Assembly: GCF_003018235.1 (NCBI RefSeq)
Contig: NZ_CP027437.1
DNA: 64,000 bases
Source of the DNA: Escherichia coli
GTDB taxonomy: Bacteria; Pseudomonadota; Gammaproteobacteria; Enterobacterales; Enterobacteriaceae
Strand: one strand, 5' to 3'
Within the stretch, counting starts at the first letter, position 1. Every line of letters starts with the position of its first letter. A program made the translations under genes and the position numbers. Shown piece after piece: positions 8,995 through 46,953 of this stretch. The notes beneath the pieces were generated by a model. The model saw only the letters and a program-made list of their open reading frames with translations, did no database searches and was not told the DNA's origin.

Positions 8995-10482
<1,488 letters not shown>

Positions 10483-10506
10483 TAAACTGTAGCAGGAAGG
10501 AACAGC

Positions 10507-13179
10507 ATGACAGATGTAACGATTAAAACGCTGGCCGCAGAGCGACAGACCTCCGTGGAACGCCTGGTACAGCAATTTGCTGATGCAGGTATCCGGAAGT
10601 CTGCTGACGACTCTGTGTCCGCACAAGAGAAACAGACTTTGATTGACCACCTGAATCAGAAAAATTCAGGCCCGGACAAATTGACGCTGCAACGTAAAAC
10701 ACGCAGCACCCTTAATATTCCTGGTACCGGTGGAAAAAGCAAATCGGTACAAATCGAAGTCCGCAAGAAACGCACCTTTGTGAAACGCGATCCGCAAGAG
10801 GCTGAACGCCTTGCTGCGGAAGAGCAAGCGCAGCGTGAAGCGGAAGAGCAAGCCCGTCGTGAGGCAGAAGAATCGGCTAAACGCGAGGCGCAACAAAAAG
10901 CTGAACGTGAGGCCGCAGAACAAGCTAAGCGTGAAGCTGCTGAACAAGCGAAACGTGAAGCTGCGGAAAAAGACAAAGTGAGCAATCAACAAGACGATAT
11001 GACTAAAAACGCCCAGGCTGAAAAAGCCCGCCGTGAGCAGGAAGCTGCAGAGCTCAAGCGTAAAGCCGAAGAAGAAGCGCGTCGTAAACTCGAAGAAGAA
11101 GCACGTCGCGTTGCTGAAGAAGCACGTCGTATGGCGGAAGAAAACAAATGGACTGATAACGCGGAACCGACTGAAGATTCCAGCGATTATCACGTCACTA
11201 CTTCTCAACATGCTCGCCAGGCAGAAGACGAAAGCGATCGTGAAGTCGAAGGCGGCCGTGGCCGTGGTCGTAACGCGAAAGCTGCGCGTCCGAAGAAAGG
11301 CAACAAACACGCTGAATCAAAAGCTGATCGTGAAGAAGCACGCGCAGCAGTACGTGGCGGTAAAGGCGGAAAACGTAAAGGTTCTTCGCTGCAGCAAGGC
11401 TTCCAGAAGCCTGCTCAGGCCGTTAACCGTGACGTAGTGATCGGCGAAACCATCACCGTTGGCGAACTGGCGAACAAGATGGCGGTTAAAGGCTCTCAGG
11501 TCATCAAAGCGATGATGAAACTGGGCGCAATGGCAACCATCAACCAGGTTATCGATCAGGAAACCGCACAGCTGGTTGCTGAAGAGATGGGCCACAAAGT
11601 TATCCTGCGTCGTGAAAACGAGCTGGAAGAAGCGGTAATGAGCGACCGTGACACGGGTGCAGCGGCTGAACCGCGCGCGCCGGTTGTGACCATCATGGGT
11701 CACGTTGACCACGGTAAAACCTCTCTGCTGGACTACATTCGTTCAACGAAAGTGGCCTCTGGCGAAGCGGGCGGCATTACCCAGCACATTGGTGCATACC
11801 ACGTTGAAACTGAAAACGGCATGATCACCTTCCTGGACACCCCGGGGCACGCCGCGTTTACTTCAATGCGTGCTCGTGGTGCGCAGGCAACGGACATCGT
11901 AGTCTTGGTTGTTGCTGCCGACGACGGCGTAATGCCGCAGACCATCGAAGCAATCCAGCACGCGAAAGCGGCGCAGGTTCCGGTGGTCGTTGCAGTGAAC
12001 AAGATCGATAAACCAGAAGCCGATCCGGATCGCGTTAAGAACGAACTCTCCCAGTACGGCATCCTGCCGGAAGAGTGGGGCGGTGAAAGCCAGTTCGTAC
12101 ATGTGTCTGCGAAAGCGGGTACTGGTATCGATGAGCTGCTGGACGCTATCCTGCTGCAGGCGGAAGTTCTGGAACTGAAAGCGGTACGTAAAGGCATGGC
12201 GAGCGGTGCGGTTATCGAATCCTTCCTCGATAAAGGTCGTGGTCCGGTTGCTACCGTTCTGGTACGTGAAGGTACTCTGCACAAGGGCGATATCGTTCTG
12301 TGTGGCTTCGAATATGGTCGTGTTCGTGCGATGCGTAACGAACTGGGTCAGGAAGTGCTGGAAGCGGGTCCGTCCATTCCGGTGGAAATCCTCGGCCTGT
12401 CCGGCGTTCCGGCTGCGGGTGATGAAGTTACCGTTGTACGTGACGAGAAGAAAGCGCGTGAAGTTGCACTCTATCGTCAGGGTAAATTCCGCGAAGTTAA
12501 ACTGGCGCGTCAGCAGAAATCTAAACTCGAGAACATGTTCGCCAACATGACCGAAGGCGAAGTTCACGAAGTGAATATCGTCCTGAAGGCAGACGTACAG
12601 GGCTCTGTGGAAGCTATCTCCGACTCCTTGCTGAAACTGTCTACTGACGAAGTTAAAGTGAAGATCATCGGTTCTGGCGTAGGTGGTATCACCGAAACCG
12701 ACGCTACCCTGGCTGCGGCGTCCAACGCCATCCTGGTTGGCTTCAACGTACGTGCTGATGCCTCTGCACGTAAAGTGATTGAAGCGGAAAGCCTGGATCT
12801 GCGTTACTACTCCGTCATCTATAACCTGATCGACGAAGTGAAAGCGGCAATGAGCGGTATGCTGTCTCCGGAACTGAAACAACAGATTATCGGTCTGGCG
12901 GAAGTTCGTGACGTATTCAAATCACCGAAATTTGGTGCCATCGCAGGTTGTATGGTTACCGAAGGTGTGGTTAAACGTCACAACCCGATCCGCGTTCTGC
13001 GCGACAACGTGGTTATCTACGAAGGCGAGCTGGAGTCCCTGCGCCGCTTCAAAGATGACGTTAACGAAGTCCGTAACGGTATGGAATGTGGTATCGGCGT
13101 TAAGAACTACAACGATGTCCGCACTGGCGATGTGATCGAAGTATTCGAAATCATCGAAATCCAACGTACCATCGCTTAA
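10507..13179 (+). CDS. infB: Translation initiation factor IF-2
   Basis: 890-aa ORF; charged repetitive N-terminal region; GTPase motifs GHVDHGKT and DTPGH. Confidence 0.97.
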
Positions 13180-13194
13180 GGTTTTTAGGGTTCC

Positions 13195-13268
13195 ATGCGG
13201 GATAAGGCGTTTACGCCGCATCCGGCATGGATTGCCTGATGCGACGCTGGCGCGTCTTATCAGGCCAA
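13195..13268. repeat. REP (repetitive extragenic palindromic) element pair
   Basis: gcgggataaggcgtttacgccgcatccggca and tgcctgatgcgacgctggcgcgtcttatcaggcc, typical E. coli REP units in the infB-rbfA spacer. Confidence 0.6.
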
Positions 13269-13303
13269 CGTGAACAGCCCTTCCACCTGAAATTAATTTT
13301 AAA

Positions 13304-13327
13304 AAGGGGCTAACAGCCCCTTTTTTG
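13304..13327 (+). terminator. Rho-independent hairpin upstream of rbfA
   Basis: Hairpin ggggctaacagcccc followed by tttttt. Confidence 0.55.
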
Positions 13328-13342
13328 TCAGGAGAATTTATT

Positions 13343-13744
13343 ATGGCGAAAGAATTTGGTCGCCCGCAGCGCGTAGCGCAGGAAATGCAAAAAGAGATCG
13401 CTCTCATCCTGCAGCGTGAAATTAAAGATCCTCGCCTGGGCATGATGACCACCGTTTCCGGTGTCGAAATGTCTCGCGACCTGGCGTATGCCAAAGTATA
13501 TGTGACGTTCCTCAACGACAAAGATGAAGACGCGGTTAAAGCGGGCATCAAAGCGCTGCAGGAAGCTTCTGGTTTCATCCGCAGCCTGTTGGGGAAAGCG
13601 ATGCGCCTGCGTATCGTGCCGGAACTGACCTTCTTCTACGACAACTCGCTGGTTGAAGGGATGCGCATGTCAAACCTGGTGACCAGCGTGGTCAAACATG
13701 ACGAAGAACGTCGTGTTAACCCGGACGACAGCAAGGAGGACTAA
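13343..13744 (+). CDS. rbfA: Ribosome-binding factor A
   Basis: ORF 13325..13744; known N-terminus [20 protein letters not shown] from the ATG at 13343; 133 aa. Confidence 0.93.
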
Positions 13745-14688
13745 TGAGTCGTCCTCGTCGTCGCGGTCGCGACATTAACGGCGTGTTGTTGCTGGATAAA
13801 CCGCAGGGTATGTCCAGCAACGATGCGCTGCAAAAAGTGAAACGGATTTATAACGCCAACCGTGCCGGGCATACCGGTGCGCTGGACCCGCTGGCAACTG
13901 GCATGTTGCCAATTTGCCTCGGGGAAGCGACGAAGTTTTCCCAGTATCTGCTGGACTCCGACAAACGCTATCGGGTGATTGCGCGTCTTGGACAGCGTAC
14001 CGATACGTCTGACGCCGATGGACAAATCGTTGAAGAACGTCCGGTAACCTTTAGCGCAGAGCAACTGGCGGCGGCACTGGATACTTTCCGTGGCGATATC
14101 GAACAGATCCCATCGATGTATTCAGCACTGAAATACCAGGGCAAAAAACTGTACGAATATGCGCGTCAGGGCATTGAAGTACCGCGTGAAGCGCGCCCGA
14201 TTACCGTTTATGAATTGCTGTTTATTCGCCACGAAGGCAATGAGCTGGAGCTGGAAATTCACTGCTCAAAAGGCACTTATATCCGCACCATTATTGATGA
14301 CCTGGGTGAAAAACTCGGTTGTGGCGCGCATGTTATTTACCTGCGTCGTCTGGCGGTAAGTAAATATCCGGTTGAACGGATGGTGACCCTGGAACATCTG
14401 CGTGAACTGGTTGAGCAAGCCGAACAGCAGGATATTCCGGCTGCGGAGTTACTTGATCCATTACTGATGCCAATGGACAGTCCAGCTTTGGACTACCCGG
14501 TGGTGAATCTTCCGTTAACGTCTTCTGTTTACTTCAAAAATGGTAACCCGGTTCGTACATCCGGTGCGCCGCTGGAAGGACTGGTTCGCGTTACAGAAGG
14601 TGAGAACGGCAAGTTTATCGGTATGGGCGAAATTGACGATGAAGGCCGCGTCGCGCCTCGTCGCCTGGTGGTTGAATACCCGGCGTAA
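13744..14688 (+). CDS. truB: tRNA pseudouridine-55 synthase
   Basis: 314-aa ORF; [11 protein letters not shown] catalytic motif; start overlaps the rbfA stop. Confidence 0.97.
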
Positions 14689-14740
14689 TGTTAACCGTCT
14701 TGCGATAACAGGTCGCTACGAGTAGAATACTGCCGCTTAA

Positions 14741-15106
<366 letters not shown>

Positions 15107-33191: not shown

Positions 33192-34055
33192 ATGAAACAA
33201 CACCAATCGGCGGATAATTCTCAGGGCCAGCTTTACATTGTACCGACGCCAATCGGCAATCTGGCGGATATCACCCAGCGTGCGTTGGAGGTATTACAGG
33301 CCGTTGATCTGATTGCCGCCGAGGATACGCGTCACACCGGTTTATTGCTGCAACATTTTGGGATTAATGCTCGGTTGTTTGCGCTGCACGACCATAACGA
33401 ACAACAAAAAGCCGAAACGCTGCTGGCGAAGCTGCAAGAGGGGCAAAACATTGCGCTGGTTTCCGATGCCGGAACGCCGCTAATTAACGATCCTGGCTAC
33501 CATCTGGTGCGTACCTGCCGTGAAGCGGGGATTCGCGTGGTGCCGCTACCCGGGCCGTGTGCTGCTATCACTGCGTTAAGCGCCGCGGGTTTACCATCCG
33601 ATCGTTTTTGTTATGAAGGCTTTTTACCTGCCAAATCAAAAGGCCGCCGTGATGCGCTAAAAGCCATTGAAGCGGAGCCGCGCACGCTGATTTTTTATGA
33701 ATCTACCCACCGTCTGTTAGATAGCCTGGAAGATATCGTTGCGGTATTAGGCGAATCCCGCTACGTGGTTCTGGCGCGTGAGCTAACCAAAACCTGGGAA
33801 ACCATTCACGGCGCGCCCGTTGGCGAGCTGCTGGCGTGGGTAAAAGAAGATGAAAACCGTCGCAAAGGCGAAATGGTGCTGATTGTCGAAGGCCATAAAG
33901 CGCAGGAAGATGACCTGCCTGCTGATGCCCTGCGCACGCTGGCGCTGCTACAGGCAGAACTGCCGCTGAAAAAAGCGGCGGCGCTGGCCGCAGAAATTCA
34001 CGGCGTGAAAAAAAATGCGCTGTATAAGTATGCGCTGGAGCAGCAGGGAGAGTGA
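33192..34055 (+). CDS. rsmI: 16S rRNA C1402 2'-O-methyltransferase RsmI
   Basis: 287-aa ORF; tetrapyrrole-methylase-like motif [15 protein letters not shown]. Confidence 0.93.
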
Positions 34056-34158
34056 TATCTCTCCGTGGCCCCGTTTGAAGAACCCATGGGCCGCCTGCTA
34101 AACAATCAGTCTTTTTAGTGAATACCGCCGTAAATCCTCGCTCCGTGCGGACTGACCA

Positions 34159-35115
34159 TCAGGGAGCTAGTTGCGTGGTATAGTTGGCAGCGACCCAACG
34201 ATAACCCTTGCTGTTGCTTTTAACATGCCCCAGGCCAGGGAATGAGATATGGGCAGCTGCCACCCAGTAACCACCCTGAGCCGCATGTTTTAATACTCGC
34301 TCACGGGTTTTTACCGCTTGCTGTTGATCCACATCGAAATGTATCGCCACGTGAGGATCCGGCATCTGCACTGCTTTGGCATGAATAATATCACCCCACA
34401 ACACTAGCGTCTGGCCTTCACTCTCCACTGTGTACATCACGCTTCCAGGTGTATGGCCGGCCGTTGAGGTGGCCGTAATGTCTGCAAATACCGTTGCCGG
34501 TGCGATAAAGGTTTTCAGCTGACCTGCGTTGATCACTGGGCGGATGGTCTGCTCCGATTCGACAAAGGTGTGCTTCTGACTCTCTTCTACTTTCGAGGCA
34601 TTCGCCGGATTAAGCCAGAAATCCGCATCTTTCTGCTCAACGAATACCTGGGCGTTAGGGAAAGCTGGTTTGCCCTGACGGGAGATGCCACCAGAGTGGT
34701 CGGCATGAATATGCGTCAGCAGCACGGCATCAATGGTTTCAGCCGGATAGCCAGCAGCTGCCAGGTTCTCAAGCAGTTGGCCTCCATTGTTGCCAAACAG
34801 ATCGCCCGCACCGGCATCAATCAACACGCGTTGCTGACCATTATCAATAACAAATGCATTGATTGAAGTCTCCGTATGGGGTGTCAGAGAATCCTTTGCC
34901 AGTTGCTGGCGCAGTTTATCGGCAGGAATGTGGGTGAGTAATTTATCTAGCGGAATTGTCACCGTGCCGTCGGAGACGGCGGTAATACGTAGTTTGCCCA
35001 ATATCATGCGGTAATAGCCCGGTGCTTGTGTATCAGGAGGGGGCACAGGTATAGGCGTTGCTAACGCATTTACGGAGAGTACCAGTGAGGTCACCAGAGT
35101 CAGCAAAAGTTTCAT
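34159..35115 (-). CDS. Secreted metallo-beta-lactamase-fold hydrolase (function unassigned)
   Basis: 318-aa ORF; N-terminal signal peptide MKLLLTLVTSLVLSVNALA; MBL zinc motif THIHADHSGG (HxHxDH); divergent from the LysR-type gene. Confidence 0.8.
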   Translation of the reverse strand: MKLLLTLVTSLVLSVNALATPIPVPPPDTQAPGYYRMILGKLRITAVSDGTVTIPLDKLLTHIPADKLRQQLAKDSLTPHTETSINAFVIDNGQQRVLIDAGAGDLFGNNGGQLLENLAAAGYPAETIDAVLLTHIHADHSGGISRQGKPAFPNAQVFVEQKDADFWLNPANASKVEESQKHTFVESEQTIRPVINAGQLKTFIAPATVFADITATSTAGHTPGSVMYTVESEGQTLVLWGDIIHAKAVQMPDPHVAIHFDVDQQQAVKTRERVLKHAAQGGYWVAAAHISFPGLGHVKSNSKGYRWVAANYTTQLAP

Positions 35116-35196
35116 TCTATCCTCGATAAGTTCTGTTATTACAGTACGGGCACCAGTATCCTTTTGCGGATAACATCATTCAAATTGATTAATATA

Positions 35197-36132
35197 ATGA
35201 ACTCTATCAGAGAAAATGATTTAAACCGGGTCGACCTCAACCTGCTAATCGTGTTCCTGGTGCTACATCGAGAGGGGGAGCGTTTCACGTGCAGCCAACA
35301 AGTTACACTTGGGGCAGCCAGCAGTCAGTGGCGCGCTGGCACGGCTGAGAGAAATGTTTAACGACCCGTTATTTGTGCGCACGGCAAAGGGGATGGCACC
35401 GACACCACGTGCACAAGATCTGGTTACGGCACTACTGCCGGTGATGGATCAAATGCAGCAGGTGATTTTTCAAAGGCCAGTTTTTACCCCAGAACAGGAT
35501 CAGCATACGTTTCGCCTGGGGATGAGTGACTGGGTCGAACGCTGGCTGATGCCTGGAATGATGGCAGATATAGCCCAAATGGCACCCGGGATTCGCTTAC
35601 AAGTCACGGCATCCGATCCTTTCCAGGATGGCGAAAAAGTGCAACAGGATAAGGTGGACGTAGCAATCTCCGTCGTGGAGCAGGTGCCCGCCGGAGTGGA
35701 ACGAGAAGTGATCACTCAAATGGGTTTTTGTACGATGTGGCATCCGCTCCAGTTATCTATCACTTCACCGTTAACCCTTGATGTATATACTGAAACCGAC
35801 CATCTTTTGGTCTCTTATCGCGGTGCAAGCAGTAGCTCTATCGATCTGATTTTGGCTGACTGCGGGCGTGGGAAGTGCGTTACGTCACGCCAAATTTCTC
35901 ATCGTTACCGTTGATGTTGAGACAGATACCGGCTTTAGCGACCGTACCGCAGGGGCTGGCAGAAGGTTGGGTAGCCGATTATGGGTTGCAATTTGCCGAT
36001 GTCCCACTCGAGGTTCCTGCTTTTACGCTCTCTCTACTCTGGAATAAGCGGCGTAATAATGATGAGGCGCTGCGCTGGTTACTAGAGAAATTACGTGCAC
36101 GAATGCAGGGCTGGGAGATGTTTTCAGAATGA
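35197..36132 (+). pseudogene. LysR-family transcriptional regulator interrupted by two frameshifts
   Basis: Three consecutive ORFs carry the pieces of one LysR protein: HTH in frame 1 (35164..35361), substrate-binding domain in frame 2 (35309..35914), C-terminus back in frame 1 (35875..36132); the first shift coincides with a G-run at 35311-35314. Confidence 0.65.
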
Positions 36133-36384
36133 GTTTGAAAACGTAACAATGTGAACAGAAAATAAGGGCTTTCTAAATTAAATAATTCCTGTTGAATATC
36201 ATCGTTAGCGACAACATCATCCACGACTACCAGCAGATTTGCACCGATGGTGGATGTTCAGGTCACGCCAACCTGGCCATGAACCAGAAGGTTATCAATA
36301 CGGGTTAAGAGAATATTGAGTAATGTCATAGTCTTATCTCCTGTTATCCTTGTCGCCTTTCATTTTTCGTTCTTTTGGCGGCAA

Positions 36385-36413
36385 TAAAAAAGGCAGATAA
36401 TTAATTATCTGCC
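36385..36413 (-). terminator. Rho-independent terminator of the PTS/C-S lyase operon
   Basis: Hairpin ggcagataattaattatctgcc followed by a T-run on the minus strand. Confidence 0.55.
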
Positions 36414-36420
36414 CTGTGGT

Positions 36421-37593
36421 TTATGCGATTTTTTGCATCCTTTCTAATGCTTGTTCAAGCCAGTATCTTTGGGTGCCGAAGTTTAAACGTAAGTAGTTTT
36501 CACCGTTTTGCACATAATGGCTGCCATCTTCAATAATGACTCCAGCGTTGCGGGCAAAATGATTGACCCATTCGGTCGCGGAGCGTCCACTTTCACTGAC
36601 ATCAATCCATGCCAGATATGACGATTCTGGTGTCATCATTTTCCATTCAGGAAAATGCGTCTTGAGGGCATCATTAAGCCAGTGGGAGTTATTGCGTAAA
36701 TAGATATTTAATGCATCCAGCCACGGTCTTGCATGCTGATAAGCCAGTGTAATTCCCCAAACGCCAAAAATATTCGGCGAAGTGATTGAGTTCATTTCCA
36801 GTCTCTGGCGAAAACGCTGCCTCAATCCTTTATTCGGAATGACTGAGTAAGATGTTTTCAGTCCCCCTAGGTTAAAGGCTTTATTTGGTGATGTTAGCAG
36901 GACCAGATTATCGTGATCGGCACATCCGGTAGCCAGGCAACTGACAAACTCGCCTTCCAGCAGGTGCTCGGCATGGACTTCATCCACGACCAGAATGACG
37001 CCGTAACGTTTACATAAGTCCGAAACCTGGCGAATCTCATCTGCCGTCCAGATTCGCCCGGAAGGGTTATGTGGAGAGCAGAAAAACCATAGTTTAGGTT
37101 TATGAAGTTTAAGCTGATCTTCAACCAGCGAAAAATCCAGTTGATAACGGTTATCCGCAATGCTTAACGGATTTGCCAGCACTTTAACCCCCTGGCGCTC
37201 TGTTGCCATGGCAAAAGGGTCATAGACTGGCGTATTCATCATGACGCTATCGCCCGGCTGGCAGAACGCCTGAACCATATAGTGCAGCGTTGAGACAGTA
37301 CCATAGGTTAGGGTGATCCAATTCTGCTCGATACTTACGTGGTGACGATCGCGCTGGAAGCCTATCACGGCCTCATAAAACTCATTAAAGGCGTATGTGT
37401 AGCCGAAAGTTCCGTGCTCAACAATCCGTTGAAAACCGTCAATTACCGCTGGTGGCGAAGTAAAATCCATATCAGCGATCCAAAGAGGGATAAAATCTTC
37501 TGCAACCGCACCGAAGCGTGAGCAGACAAACTGATGATCCCATTTGCGGCACTTGTCGCTTTTACGCTCGATAATTCTATCGAAATCGAACAT
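36421..37593 (-). CDS. PLP-dependent C-S lyase (MalY/PatB-family class I/II aminotransferase fold)
   Basis: 390-aa ORF resembling MalY/PatB cystathionine beta-lyases (..LLTSPNKAFNLGGLK.. PLP-lysine region); clearly diverged from K-12 MalY, so a paralogue. Confidence 0.85.
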   Translation of the reverse strand: MFDFDRIIERKSDKCRKWDHQFVCSRFGAVAEDFIPLWIADMDFTSPPAVIDGFQRIVEHGTFGYTYAFNEFYEAVIGFQRDRHHVSIEQNWITLTYGTVSTLHYMVQAFCQPGDSVMMNTPVYDPFAMATERQGVKVLANPLSIADNRYQLDFSLVEDQLKLHKPKLWFFCSPHNPSGRIWTADEIRQVSDLCKRYGVILVVDEVHAEHLLEGEFVSCLATGCADHDNLVLLTSPNKAFNLGGLKTSYSVIPNKGLRQRFRQRLEMNSITSPNIFGVWGITLAYQHARPWLDALNIYLRNNSHWLNDALKTHFPEWKMMTPESSYLAWIDVSESGRSATEWVNHFARNAGVIIEDGSHYVQNGENYLRLNFGTQRYWLEQALERMQKIA

Positions 37594-37605
37594 TTTTAAC
37601 TCCTG

Positions 37606-39177
37606 TTAAATTAAAGCTTCAAGGCCCGTTTTCACACTTTGAACTTGCGGGCCAATAATTACCTGCACACTGTGAGCATCCAGTACAACCACCGACAGGG
37701 CACCTGCATTCTTTAACGTGGCTTGATCCACTTTCGACATATCTTTCACCACCAAACGTAAACGAGTAATACAGTTATCCAGTGAATCAATATTTTCTTT
37801 TCCGCCAAGCGCACTCAAAATCACAGCATGATCATATTTAGATTTGCCTCGTGCTTTTGAATTTGCTGCAACAGCCTGTGCTGCATCCTCAGATGAGTCT
37901 TCACGGCCTGGGGTTTTAATATCATGCTTAAGGATGTACCAACGGAAAACAAAGAAATAAATAGCAAACCAAACAATACCCACCGGAAGTATTAAATACC
38001 ATTTAGTAGAAGTACCCTGCATGATACCAAATATTAATAAATCCAAAATCCCGCCATCAGTATTACCGATAGTCACGCCCAGGATTGCCATAACCATTAA
38101 GGCCAGACCGGACATGATAATATGGAATATATACAACGCAGGAGCAATAAAGAGGAATAAAAACTCAATTGGTTCAGAAATGCCAGTAACAACAGATACT
38201 AATACGCCTGAAAGCAGTAAGCCTTTAATTACAGGACGATTTTCTGGTTTGGCTGTACGATAAATTGCGTAAGCCACAGCAGGCAAACCAAACATAAAGG
38301 TTGGCATAAAGCCTTGGGATAAAAACGCAGTAACATGTGGGCTAAAGGGAAGACCGGCTTTTAATTCTGCATAGAAAATATTGAGTGCTCCGGCAACTTC
38401 ATGACCGTCGACAATTTCTGTACCGCCCGCAGGTGTGAAGCGAACCATTGCAAGCAAGATATGATGTAGCCCGAAAGGCTTAAGCAAAAGCACACCAACG
38501 CCATAAAGGAACGGGCCGAATACGCTGGTACTTTGAATAATGTGGCCAATACCAGCAATACCCATTGCAACATAGGTCCAGAGCAAAGGAATGGCCTGGC
38601 CTACTAATGATAATGTTAGCGAAGTGATGATGGGTACGAAGCGGATACCGCTAAAGAAGGCAAAGGCATCATGTAATACAGTATCCTGAAAACGTTCGTG
38701 GAGAAAATAAGTTATTACCCCGGCGATGATGCCACCTAAAACGCCCATCTCTAAGGTTTGAATACCTAATACTACAGATTGACCAACCTGCTTCATCGTG
38801 GCAGCATCGGCAAGTTGATGGGTAACAGTGAGATAATAATTAATACTCATGTTCATTAGCATATAGCCAACAAAACCTGAATATGCGCCTACTGCTTTAT
38901 TTCTCTTTGCCATTCCTAATGGAATTGCAATAGCAAACATAACAGGTAGATAAGTAAATGCAAAGCCACCTACCATTGCAATAAAGCCAAATGTAAGTTG
39001 GGTAAGCTCACCACCTAAAAAGGGGAAGTTATTAATTGTTGAGGGGCTGGTTACTGAACTACCTATACCTAACAGAAGTCCCATAAAAGCGAGTAATGAT
39101 ACTGGGAACATAAATGTTTTCCCTAAACTTTGGAAAAACTCCCAGACCCGTGACTTTATAGACTTTTCCTGTGTCAT
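37606..39177 (-). CDS. PTS glucose-family EIICB component (MalX/PtsG-like)
   Basis: 523-aa ORF; multi-pass EIIC domain plus C-terminal EIIB domain with phosphorylation-site motif NCITRLRL; co-directional with and 13 bp upstream of the C-S lyase gene. Confidence 0.85.
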   Translation of the reverse strand: MTQEKSIKSRVWEFFQSLGKTFMFPVSLLAFMGLLLGIGSSVTSPSTINNFPFLGGELTQLTFGFIAMVGGFAFTYLPVMFAIAIPLGMAKRNKAVGAYSGFVGYMLMNMSINYYLTVTHQLADAATMKQVGQSVVLGIQTLEMGVLGGIIAGVITYFLHERFQDTVLHDAFAFFSGIRFVPIITSLTLSLVGQAIPLLWTYVAMGIAGIGHIIQSTSVFGPFLYGVGVLLLKPFGLHHILLAMVRFTPAGGTEIVDGHEVAGALNIFYAELKAGLPFSPHVTAFLSQGFMPTFMFGLPAVAYAIYRTAKPENRPVIKGLLLSGVLVSVVTGISEPIEFLFLFIAPALYIFHIIMSGLALMVMAILGVTIGNTDGGILDLLIFGIMQGTSTKWYLILPVGIVWFAIYFFVFRWYILKHDIKTPGREDSSEDAAQAVAANSKARGKSKYDHAVILSALGGKENIDSLDNCITRLRLVVKDMSKVDQATLKNAGALSVVVLDAHSVQVIIGPQVQSVKTGLEALI

Positions 39178-39314
39178 TTAATAGACTCCTTGATTTTTAT
39201 AAGCATAGTTTCAAGGTCATGAAAAAGTAATCATGACCTTTTATATTTGTGAGGTAAGTTGTTTTTTATTGTCTGAATACAGCTGCTAAGAAACTGTTAT
39301 TCACATATTTTTAA

Positions 39315-40184
<870 letters not shown>

Positions 40185-46705: not shown

Positions 46706-46953
46706 TTTCCTCTCCAGTTCAGATTACTGCGATATTAATCTTTCGTTTTGTTTCAGTTGATACTGCGCCATGGTGAGATAAAAATAAAACGAAAGATAAT
46801 AGTTTTCTGATCTGATTCACAAAAGAAACATAATGAAAGCCACTGAAACGAGAGTAGCTTGCGCCAATGGGTAAGGTGGGCTTGCATTTGCTTAATAGAA
46901 AGGCGTTAATAGGCAAAACGAAATGAAACGAAAGTTTTACGAAAGGACTTACT
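46706..46953. promoter_or_regulatory. Divergent kbaZ/agaR promoter region with AgaR (DeoR-type) operator repeats
   Basis: Repeated CTTTCGTTT/AAACGAAAG motifs (ctttcgttttgtttcag, aaaacgaaagataa, aacgaaatgaaacgaaagttttacgaaagg). Confidence 0.5.

Follow-up and report, generated by a model that had tools for sequence, protein, structure and literature searches.

A MalX-family permease and a PatB-type lyase form a distinct gene pair behind kbaY in the aga cluster of Escherichia coli

In the malI-malXY locus of Escherichia coli K-12, a glucose-family phosphotransferase system (PTS) permease without an EIIA domain (the EIICB protein MalX) is encoded about 10 nt ahead of a 390-aa pyridoxal phosphate (PLP)-dependent enzyme of the PatB/MalY family, and to our knowledge no physiological role has been settled for this type of pairing in the time since the first account of malXY. 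The other close points of reference are the PatB-type C-S beta-lyases (Bacillus subtilis PatB, 6qp3; S. hominis PatB; S. anginosus Lcd; cystalysin), which as far as we know have not been described as partners of a PTS permease or an amino-sugar operon; the phospho-glycosidase PTS operons such as B. subtilis glvA-glvR-glvC, in which import with phosphorylation is followed by cleavage; and the aga/gam regulon of E. coli C and O157, organized as agaR, kbaZ-agaVWEFA and agaS-kbaY-agaBCDI. Here we analyze a gene pair that touches on all of these systems, located directly behind kbaY in a 64,000-nucleotide stretch of E. coli contig NZ_CP027437.1 (assembly GCF_003018235.1), hereafter the window. The Prokaryotic Genome Annotation Pipeline annotates the pair as 'malX' and 'MalY/PatB family protein'. 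The genes on which the analysis centers are as follows.

37606..39177, minus strand: gene for a 523-aa PTS EIICB, a MalX-family permease, with an ATG start and the Shine-Dalgarno (SD) sequence AAGGAG upstream
36421..37593, minus strand: gene for a 390-aa PLP enzyme, a PatB-family PLP-dependent beta-lyase, with its own SD sequence CAGGAG
39315..40172, minus strand: kbaY, tagatose-bisphosphate aldolase subunit, 137 nt before the EIICB gene

Comparison with the described systems leads us to a tentative reading, plausible though somewhat short of probable, in which the two genes form a horizontally acquired catabolic module that serves as the distal unit of the agaS-kbaY transcription unit and would couple PTS import to beta-elimination of a sugar–amino-acid conjugate. 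The sequence-only reading of the window had already recognized both open reading frames (ORFs) directly downstream of kbaY, and each is present there, on the strand of kbaY, which is the minus strand that it had left unstated; the lyase gene does follow the EIICB gene closely, with a gap from EIICB stop to lyase ATG of 12 nt rather than the proposed 13 and the lyase SD sequence lying within it. The two genes are intact and under purifying selection, and their catalytic residues are complete. Their ratios of nonsynonymous to synonymous divergence (dN/dS) are 0.07 (EIICB) and 0.09 (lyase) against the copy of Shiga toxin-producing E. coli (STEC) O145:H28, and 0.05 and 0.07 against that of a cryptic-clade Escherichia, with synonymous divergence (dS) similar to that of the flanking kbaY and agaS. 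Decay among the neighbors, where agaB survives as a remnant and a LysR-type gene is frameshifted, together with the rarity of the module in E. coli, might suggest that the module is a leftover of an earlier transfer, now decaying and without function in this E. coli, but neither ORF is shortened, the SD sequences are good, every functional motif is preserved, and dN/dS values of 0.05-0.09 between E. coli and Escherichia copies at a neighbor-like dS leave that explanation with scarcely any probability. The upstream aga genes of the window are likewise complete. The window is a piece of E. coli chromosome whose dolP-rsmI core genes are 99.2% identical to those of some E. coli. The GC content is 0.42-0.47 over the EIICB and lyase genes versus 0.52-0.58 in the flanks, and 0.437 for the module as a whole versus 0.544 for the aga genes.

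The resemblance to malXY is one of architecture and family: both permeases are glucose-family EIICBs of NCBIfam family TIGR02004 that lack an EIIA, and both are followed at a similar distance by a PLP enzyme of similar length. The window EIICB comprises PF02378 (PTS_EIIC) and PF00367 (PTS_EIIB) without an EIIA domain, and it scores above the cutoffs of TIGR02004 (732.6 bits; cutoff 632.2) and NF007509 (722.8 bits; cutoff 665), the MalX-named model being itself a 'hypothetical equivalog'. Its key motifs (Cys469 within CITRLR, GISEP at 332 and GLHH at 236) are kept in all 10 clade members, and the cysteine context of the EIIB site that the sequence-only reading had picked out is intact on alignment. 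With 54% identity to K-12 MalX, 38% to PtsG and 33% to NagE, the permease is closer to many Firmicute EIICBs (61-67%) than to MalX, and the lyase shares just 31% with MalY, bearing out the earlier view that the pair has diverged from its K-12 counterparts. Canonical malXY is found in 5423 of 5426 complete E. coli genomes and the window module in 30, so that module carriers have both pairs; relocation of malXY is thereby excluded, given the low identity and the independent presence of the canonical genes. We likewise rejected the module as a malXY orthologue, since it lies behind kbaY and not at the hdhA-add malI-malXY locus and identity is low. No LacI-type malI occurs in its neighborhood, which is flanked by kbaY on one side and by the agaB remnant, a LysR pseudogene and a metallo-beta-lactamase (MBL)-fold hydrolase on the other; as had been noted, malI is not adjacent, and the sole nearby regulator is that LysR pseudogene, which belongs to another inserted block. 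Nor is there an EIIA domain or gene in the module. By analogy with MalX, the permease would use EIIA-Glc (Crr); belonging to the glucose and not the mannose family, it cannot take AgaF as its EIIA.

The lyase is a PatB-type enzyme by several measures, scoring 364.4 bits against the PatB C-S lyase model TIGR04350 (curated cutoff, 340) and finding its nearest solved structure in B. subtilis PatB (6qp3, E = 8e-80), ahead of MalY (1d2f, 1e-64). The fold-type I PLP set is complete, with Tyr124 (stacking), Asn176, Asp204, Lys238 (Schiff base) and Arg369 (alpha-carboxylate) invariant across the lyase clade and MalY. In fold-type I enzymes an invariant alpha-carboxylate arginine points to an alpha-amino-acid substrate, and the invariance of these catalytic residues, Arg369 included, therefore argues for such a substrate here. 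Where the window lyase may depart from the PatB-type enzymes is in acting on something other than a C-S compound.

A different picture emerges for the surface with which MalY sequesters MalT, formed by A84, C181, D182, E185, S218, N219 and A221 (PMC10427625). At most two of these seven residues are kept in the lyase clade, the equivalent of E185 is Arg or Lys in eight of the 10 members, and the contact positions vary inside the clade, where the catalytic residues do not. Vibrio furnissii MalY carries no more than two of these substitutions and is already unable to repress, and the 2023 MalY-MalT structure paper itself calls the physiological role of this control unclear (PMC10427625). Because the published contact residues are not conserved, the MalY-style moonlighting on MalT implied by the sequence-only reading is unlikely for the window lyase, and we rejected its interpretation as a MalT regulator. 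The same evidence bears on a broader proposal, in which the lyase is mainly a MalY-like trigger enzyme that, during expression of the aga operon, would bind and inhibit MalT (or a different activator) and so set a sugar hierarchy, with the EIICB giving the signal. The MalY precedent (PMC10427625) and the malXY-like gene architecture speak for it; the loss and variability of the contact positions, the failure of the twice-substituted V. furnissii protein and the occurrence of close relatives in Firmicute operons with peptidases make it very unlikely.

The genomic distribution of the pair sets it apart from malXY more clearly still. A scan for the lyase with one genome per species returned 19 loci, from which a 5.3-kb contig with no upstream flank (L014) was left out. 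The pair lies directly 3' of kbaY in all 17 flanked proteobacterial loci (Escherichia sp., Kluyvera in five, Enterobacter in seven, Citrobacter, Enterobacteriaceae RIT691 and Aeromonas in two), where it closes an agaVWEF-agaA-agaS-kbaY series, and the same position directly after kbaY was found in Morganella and Salmonella enterica subsp. indica, so that the arrangement spans at least seven genera and two orders. In Aeromonas agaS comes first, the downstream flank is recO-era and the spacer has shrunk to 38-41 nt, and the pair still follows kbaY. Identities of EIICB and lyase to the window proteins fall together (99% and 97%, 98% and 95%, 93% and 83%, 90% and 67%, 83% and 64%, 71% and 59%, 66% and 58%), with K-12 MalX and MalY outside the series at 54% and 31%, a pattern that indicates a co-inherited unit forming a separate orthologous group. 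The sequence-only reading of a 'paralogous operon' thus stands as to divergence from MalX and MalY, and gives way as to origin: this is no E. coli-specific paralogue but a distinct orthologous module of many Enterobacterales and Aeromonas. Its broader suggestion, a second sugar-uptake and lyase module that is malXY-like, malI-less and situated at the agaBCD site, is supported.

As regards expression of the pair, the spacer behind kbaY (39178-39314) holds no AgaR operator (CTTTCRTTT-type repeats); matches to the operator are found at the agaS and agaZ/agaR promoters (41394 and 46740-46934). A sigma-70 scan of the region gave fewer matches than in shuffled sequences, none of them persuasive on the coding strand. 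A single terminator-like site with a T-run was seen, behind the lyase gene. The pair is probably co-transcribed from the AgaR-controlled agaS promoter. The spacer does contain a folded element.

39213..39240, minus strand: intercistronic stem-loop with a 10-bp stem, an 8-nt loop and no T-run

Its folding energy is -14.9 kcal/mol (z, -5.9), and stem-loops with other stem sequences occupy the equivalent position in Kluyvera, Enterobacter, Citrobacter and RIT691. In the alignment 88.8% of cells are paired and eight of the 10 pairs are changed on both sides, with covariation of 0.60 versus 0.23 in shuffles (0/500) and no more than 0.22 in slid controls; structure, not sequence, is conserved in five enterobacterial genera. 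The element is absent in Morganella and Aeromonas, and an Rfam search at the hairpin returned only a sub-threshold chance match (Termite-leu, 25.8 versus 51 bits). Just 5' of it lies a box of ~20-25 nt (AATAAnAACAACnnACCTCnCAAATAT; 39241-39262, minus strand; columns ~66-96 of alignment A1) that is conserved in sequence across five genera; this box is not an AgaR repeat and could be matched neither to a CRP site nor to a clear promoter. The hairpin may act as an intercistronic stabilizer or as an attenuator tuning distal expression.

Beyond the aga cluster, the association of lyase and permease proved general, with the lyase directly after a PTS EIIC gene in all ~30 sampled contexts and, when sampling began from the EIICB, an Aminotran_1_2 gene next in three of three. 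The regulators in these contexts are PRD antiterminators, PRD activators or RpiR-type proteins (HTH_6 plus SIS domains). Firmicute contigs carry a LicT-type antiterminator, a glucose-family EIICB and the lyase, while in Pelosinus, two Clostridium metagenome-assembled genomes (MAGs) and a JGI contig the order is PRD/Mga regulator, EIIA, EIIB, EIIC, M24 (YpdF-like) aminopeptidase, lyase, and these operons have M20 and S8 peptidase genes as neighbors. The three contexts reached from the EIICB read as follows.

Robertmurraya: RpiR-type regulator, EIICB, lyase
Carnobacterium: RpiR-type regulator, EIICB, lyase, overlapping RidA-family gene
Aerococcaceae: antiterminator, EIICB, lyase

The lyases found as partners of MalX-family EIICBs fall into two lineages that share about 30% identity: the window type (type A), which in Firmicutes accompanies PRD-regulated PTS operons and peptidases, and the MalY type of K-12, Robertmurraya and Carnobacterium. 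Besides this difference of lineage, the window module departs from malI-malXY in having no MalI, in its locus within the aga cluster and in the loss of the MalT-contact surface. In Carnobacterium maltaromaticum (9777-10154 of the locus) the MalY-type lyase gene runs at its 3' end into the RidA-family (Ribonuc_L-PSP) gene; RidA quenches the 2-aminoacrylate made by PLP beta-eliminases, and the overlap suggests a real elimination flux in vivo for such pairs. The Robertmurraya and Carnobacterium loci also resemble glv-type operons, in that an RpiR-type regulator is combined with a MalX/GlvC-like EIICB and a single cytoplasmic enzyme. The cleaving enzyme differs, being a PLP lyase and not a GH4 or GH1 phospho-glycosidase, and a PLP lyase in this place points to an amino acid, not a second sugar, as the aglycone.

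A third gene would tie some of these clusters to a particular class of sugar. Seven Enterobacter-type loci and one E. coli record encode, after the lyase, a 629-aa signal-peptide protein, which Aeromonas sobria has in the same place at 52% identity. It belongs to the Ast/YacT family, for which the positions, all outside the window, include the following.

L013, 9191-11080: Ast/YacT family gene
L021, 9524-11296: Ast/YacT family gene
L037, 13190-15079: Ast/YacT family gene

The database name of the family is 'enterotoxin' (heat-stable cytotonic; PMC6246891), and some sources label the protein a 'predicted exported alpha-N-acetylgalactosaminidase'. It has no Pfam or NCBIfam match and carries an LLDDGWDD motif. 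Its confidently predicted model (predicted local distance difference test score, 81; predicted template modeling score, 0.81) best matches the Flavonifractor blood-group-A alpha-galactosaminidase (E ~1e-21), glycoside hydrolase (GH) family 36 alpha-galactosidases and the GH129 alpha-N-acetylgalactosaminidase NagBb, and the 'enterotoxin' name may hide an exported alpha-galactos(amin)idase. These predicted fold matches would tie the extended cluster independently to alpha-linked N-acetylgalactosamine (GalNAc) or galactosamine conjugates. A passage of an Aeromonas genomics paper places ast between 'aspartate aminotransferase' and 'tagatose bisphosphate aldolase', an order that the passage itself leaves uninterpreted (PMC7250499). 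As for the excluded contig L014, which comes from a MAG labelled Collinsella sp., its EIICB, lyase and Ast-like gene are 88%, 79% and 90% identical to enterobacterial copies; its origin in Enterobacter and its mis-binning into the actinobacterial MAG are all but certain. The E. coli record (L037; NZ_CP148478.1, a 37.8-kb 'plasmid', 9680-15079) has a natural deletion that leaves ~25 codons from the start of kbaZ fused to the 3' end of kbaY, thereby placing an Enterobacter-type unit of hairpin, EIICB, lyase and Ast-like gene behind the AgaR-operator-rich agaZ promoter, next to agaR and with IS1 nearby; derived from single-cell data, the record could represent a piece of chromosome or an artefact of assembly.

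Taken as a pathway, the catabolic reading would run as follows. The EIICB, charged by EIIA-Glc (Crr), would import and 6-phosphorylate a hexose or hexosamine linked via the beta-carbon of an amino acid (O-linked to Ser/Thr or S-linked to Cys), the most attractive candidate being GalNAc-alpha-O-Ser/Thr from mucin breakdown. The lyase, filling the place of a phospho-glycosidase, would then release sugar 6-phosphate, pyruvate (or 2-oxobutyrate) and ammonia by alpha,beta-elimination, and the GalNAc 6-phosphate product would enter the AgaA-AgaS-KbaYZ route. A wider and more speculative extension, which we consider unlikely as matters stand, is that pairs of a MalX-family EIICB and a PatB-type lyase, perhaps including classical malXY, represent an unrecognized strategy in which the PTS brings in a glycosylated amino acid (for the window pair GalNAc-alpha-O-Ser/Thr, the Tn core of mucin), a PLP glyco-amino-acid beta-lyase stands in for the phospho-glycosidase, and the aminopeptidases of the Firmicute operons trim glycopeptides beforehand.

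Several points weigh against the catabolic reading. The glyco-amino-acid idea derives solely from gene context and chemical plausibility; the PatB/MalY enzymes characterized so far cleave the C-S bond of cysteine conjugates, and the literature searched contains no PLP lyase for O-glycosyl serine. The RidA association belongs to the MalY-type lineage and not to that of the window, and the spacer hairpin might terminate most transcripts. A single ancestral fusion behind kbaY could have spread by block transfer, in which case the independent associations may number one. Finally, Hafnia and one enterobacterial contig (L028) have the same orthologous pair by itself amid housekeeping genes and at a distance from any aga genes, indicating that an aga pathway nearby is not strictly needed.

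The last of these observations also favors the main rival, in which the EIICB is an ordinary second permease of glucose/maltose (or galactosamine) type, the lyase is a general cysteine-S-conjugate or cystathionine beta-lyase of sulfur-amino-acid metabolism that leaves the imported sugar untouched, and the site behind kbaY reflects hitch-hiking in a recombination hot spot. The EIICB does pass the MalX-named NCBIfam models, the characterized relatives of the lyase are of the expected C-S type, and the kbaY-rsmI interval is indeed variable, holding agaBCDI plus yraHIJK, MBL plus LysR genes, or a GH-like gene by genome. What this rival leaves unexplained is why, in Proteobacteria and Firmicutes alike, the lyase gene always comes immediately 3' of a PTS EIIC gene under regulators of the sugar-PTS type, why the operon takes in peptidases, why two lyase lineages as distant as ~30% identity both pair with MalX-family EIICBs, and why adjacency to kbaY persists through 40% protein divergence and a 38-nt spacer in Aeromonas. 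Weakened by the universal pairing, it strikes us as rather doubtful, though a more serious contender than the trigger-enzyme or decay explanations, and we retain coupled import and beta-elimination as the preferred, tentative interpretation.

By blastn against K-12, the insertion covers 36318-39333; its upstream limit falls inside kbaY, as the K-12 match stops at 39334 and the end of the gene (39315-39333, the last ~6 codons) belongs to the insertion, giving a KbaY C-terminus of ...CGSYKRLR in module carriers and ...CGSANRISA in non-carriers. Two features mark the other end.

36183..36332, minus strand: 5' remnant of agaB (AgaB residues 1-48, Trp24 changed to stop), marking the original start of agaBCD-agaI
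36390..36415, minus strand: terminator-like hairpin from a terminator scan, an 11-bp stem followed by TTTTATT, closing the module

The remnant matches K-12 at 96% over 135 nt (36183-36317), and the remainder of agaB together with agaC, agaD and agaI is absent from the locus by blastn against K-12; the proposal that the pair sits where agaBCD normally starts is thus borne out by the agaB fragment just downstream. Relative to the aga/gam regulon, then, the module sits in what would be the agaS-kbaY transcription unit, at the point where agaB begins, and differs in that agaBCDI is gone save for this remnant, that the permease is of the glucose family and that it has no AgaR operator of its own. 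Cryptic-clade Escherichia retains an intact agaBCD after the EIICB-lyase pair, an arrangement that represents the state before the deletion seen in the window. A 13-nt element, TAACAGGAG(T/A)TAA (stop codon plus SD sequence), lies ahead of the ATG of the lyase gene (37596-37608) and again ahead of that of the agaB remnant (36334-36346); chance or a trace of junction formation could account for the repetition.

The module borders show no notable direct or inverted repeats, integrase, insertion sequence or tRNA-type boundary, and junctions inside kbaY and before agaB fit homologous or illegitimate recombination, not a mobile element. The module entered a few E. coli lineages horizontally, STEC O145:H28 being its main carrier in the species; close plasmid matches comprise only one 37.8-kb record and two mislabelled chromosome-sized records. 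Beyond the agaB remnant, 34049-36182 forms a separate block, an MBL-fold hydrolase gene and a divergent LysR regulator gene that replace the yraHIJK fimbrial operon. The hydrolase (318 aa, with an N-terminal signal-like sequence) has its best NCBIfam match in an AidB-type lactonase model at 203 bits, below the cutoff of 360. The LysR gene (35197-36132, plus strand) is a pseudogene, with an extra G (+1) at 35274 and a 4-nt deletion at ~35869, as judged against intact copies of 312-314 aa in O145, PapRG-06-5 and E. coli CP057617.1. This block is found in 63 of the 5426 complete E. coli genomes; because 33 of these lack the EIICB-lyase module, we rejected the block as part of the module. Block-only genomes read rsmI-MBL-LysR-agaI-agaD-agaC-agaB-kbaY; since they keep agaI-agaB, the block replaced only yraHIJK, and the insertion of the module with loss of agaB'-agaI was a different event.

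The orthologous group, its membership in the aga cluster, the hairpin, the loss of the MalT surface and the peptidase and GH partners appear to be undescribed in the literature searched, which yielded no paper on this module; the comparative AgaR-regulon study (Leyn et al. 2012) lay outside that search. The module offers a natural variant without the MalT-contact residues inside the gene cluster of a defined catabolic route, that leading from GalNAc to tagatose bisphosphate, and its aga setting, the GH-like neighbor in some genera and the aminopeptidases beside its Firmicute relatives narrow the candidate substrates to conjugates of a sugar with an amino acid. Should the GalNAc-O-Ser/Thr idea prove wrong, the pair is still a well-defined, strain-variable accessory island that is probably misnamed 'maltose/glucose-specific' in annotation; if it is true, the lyase would represent a new enzyme activity and the module a new route by which Enterobacterales, including STEC O145:H28, would feed on mucin debris.

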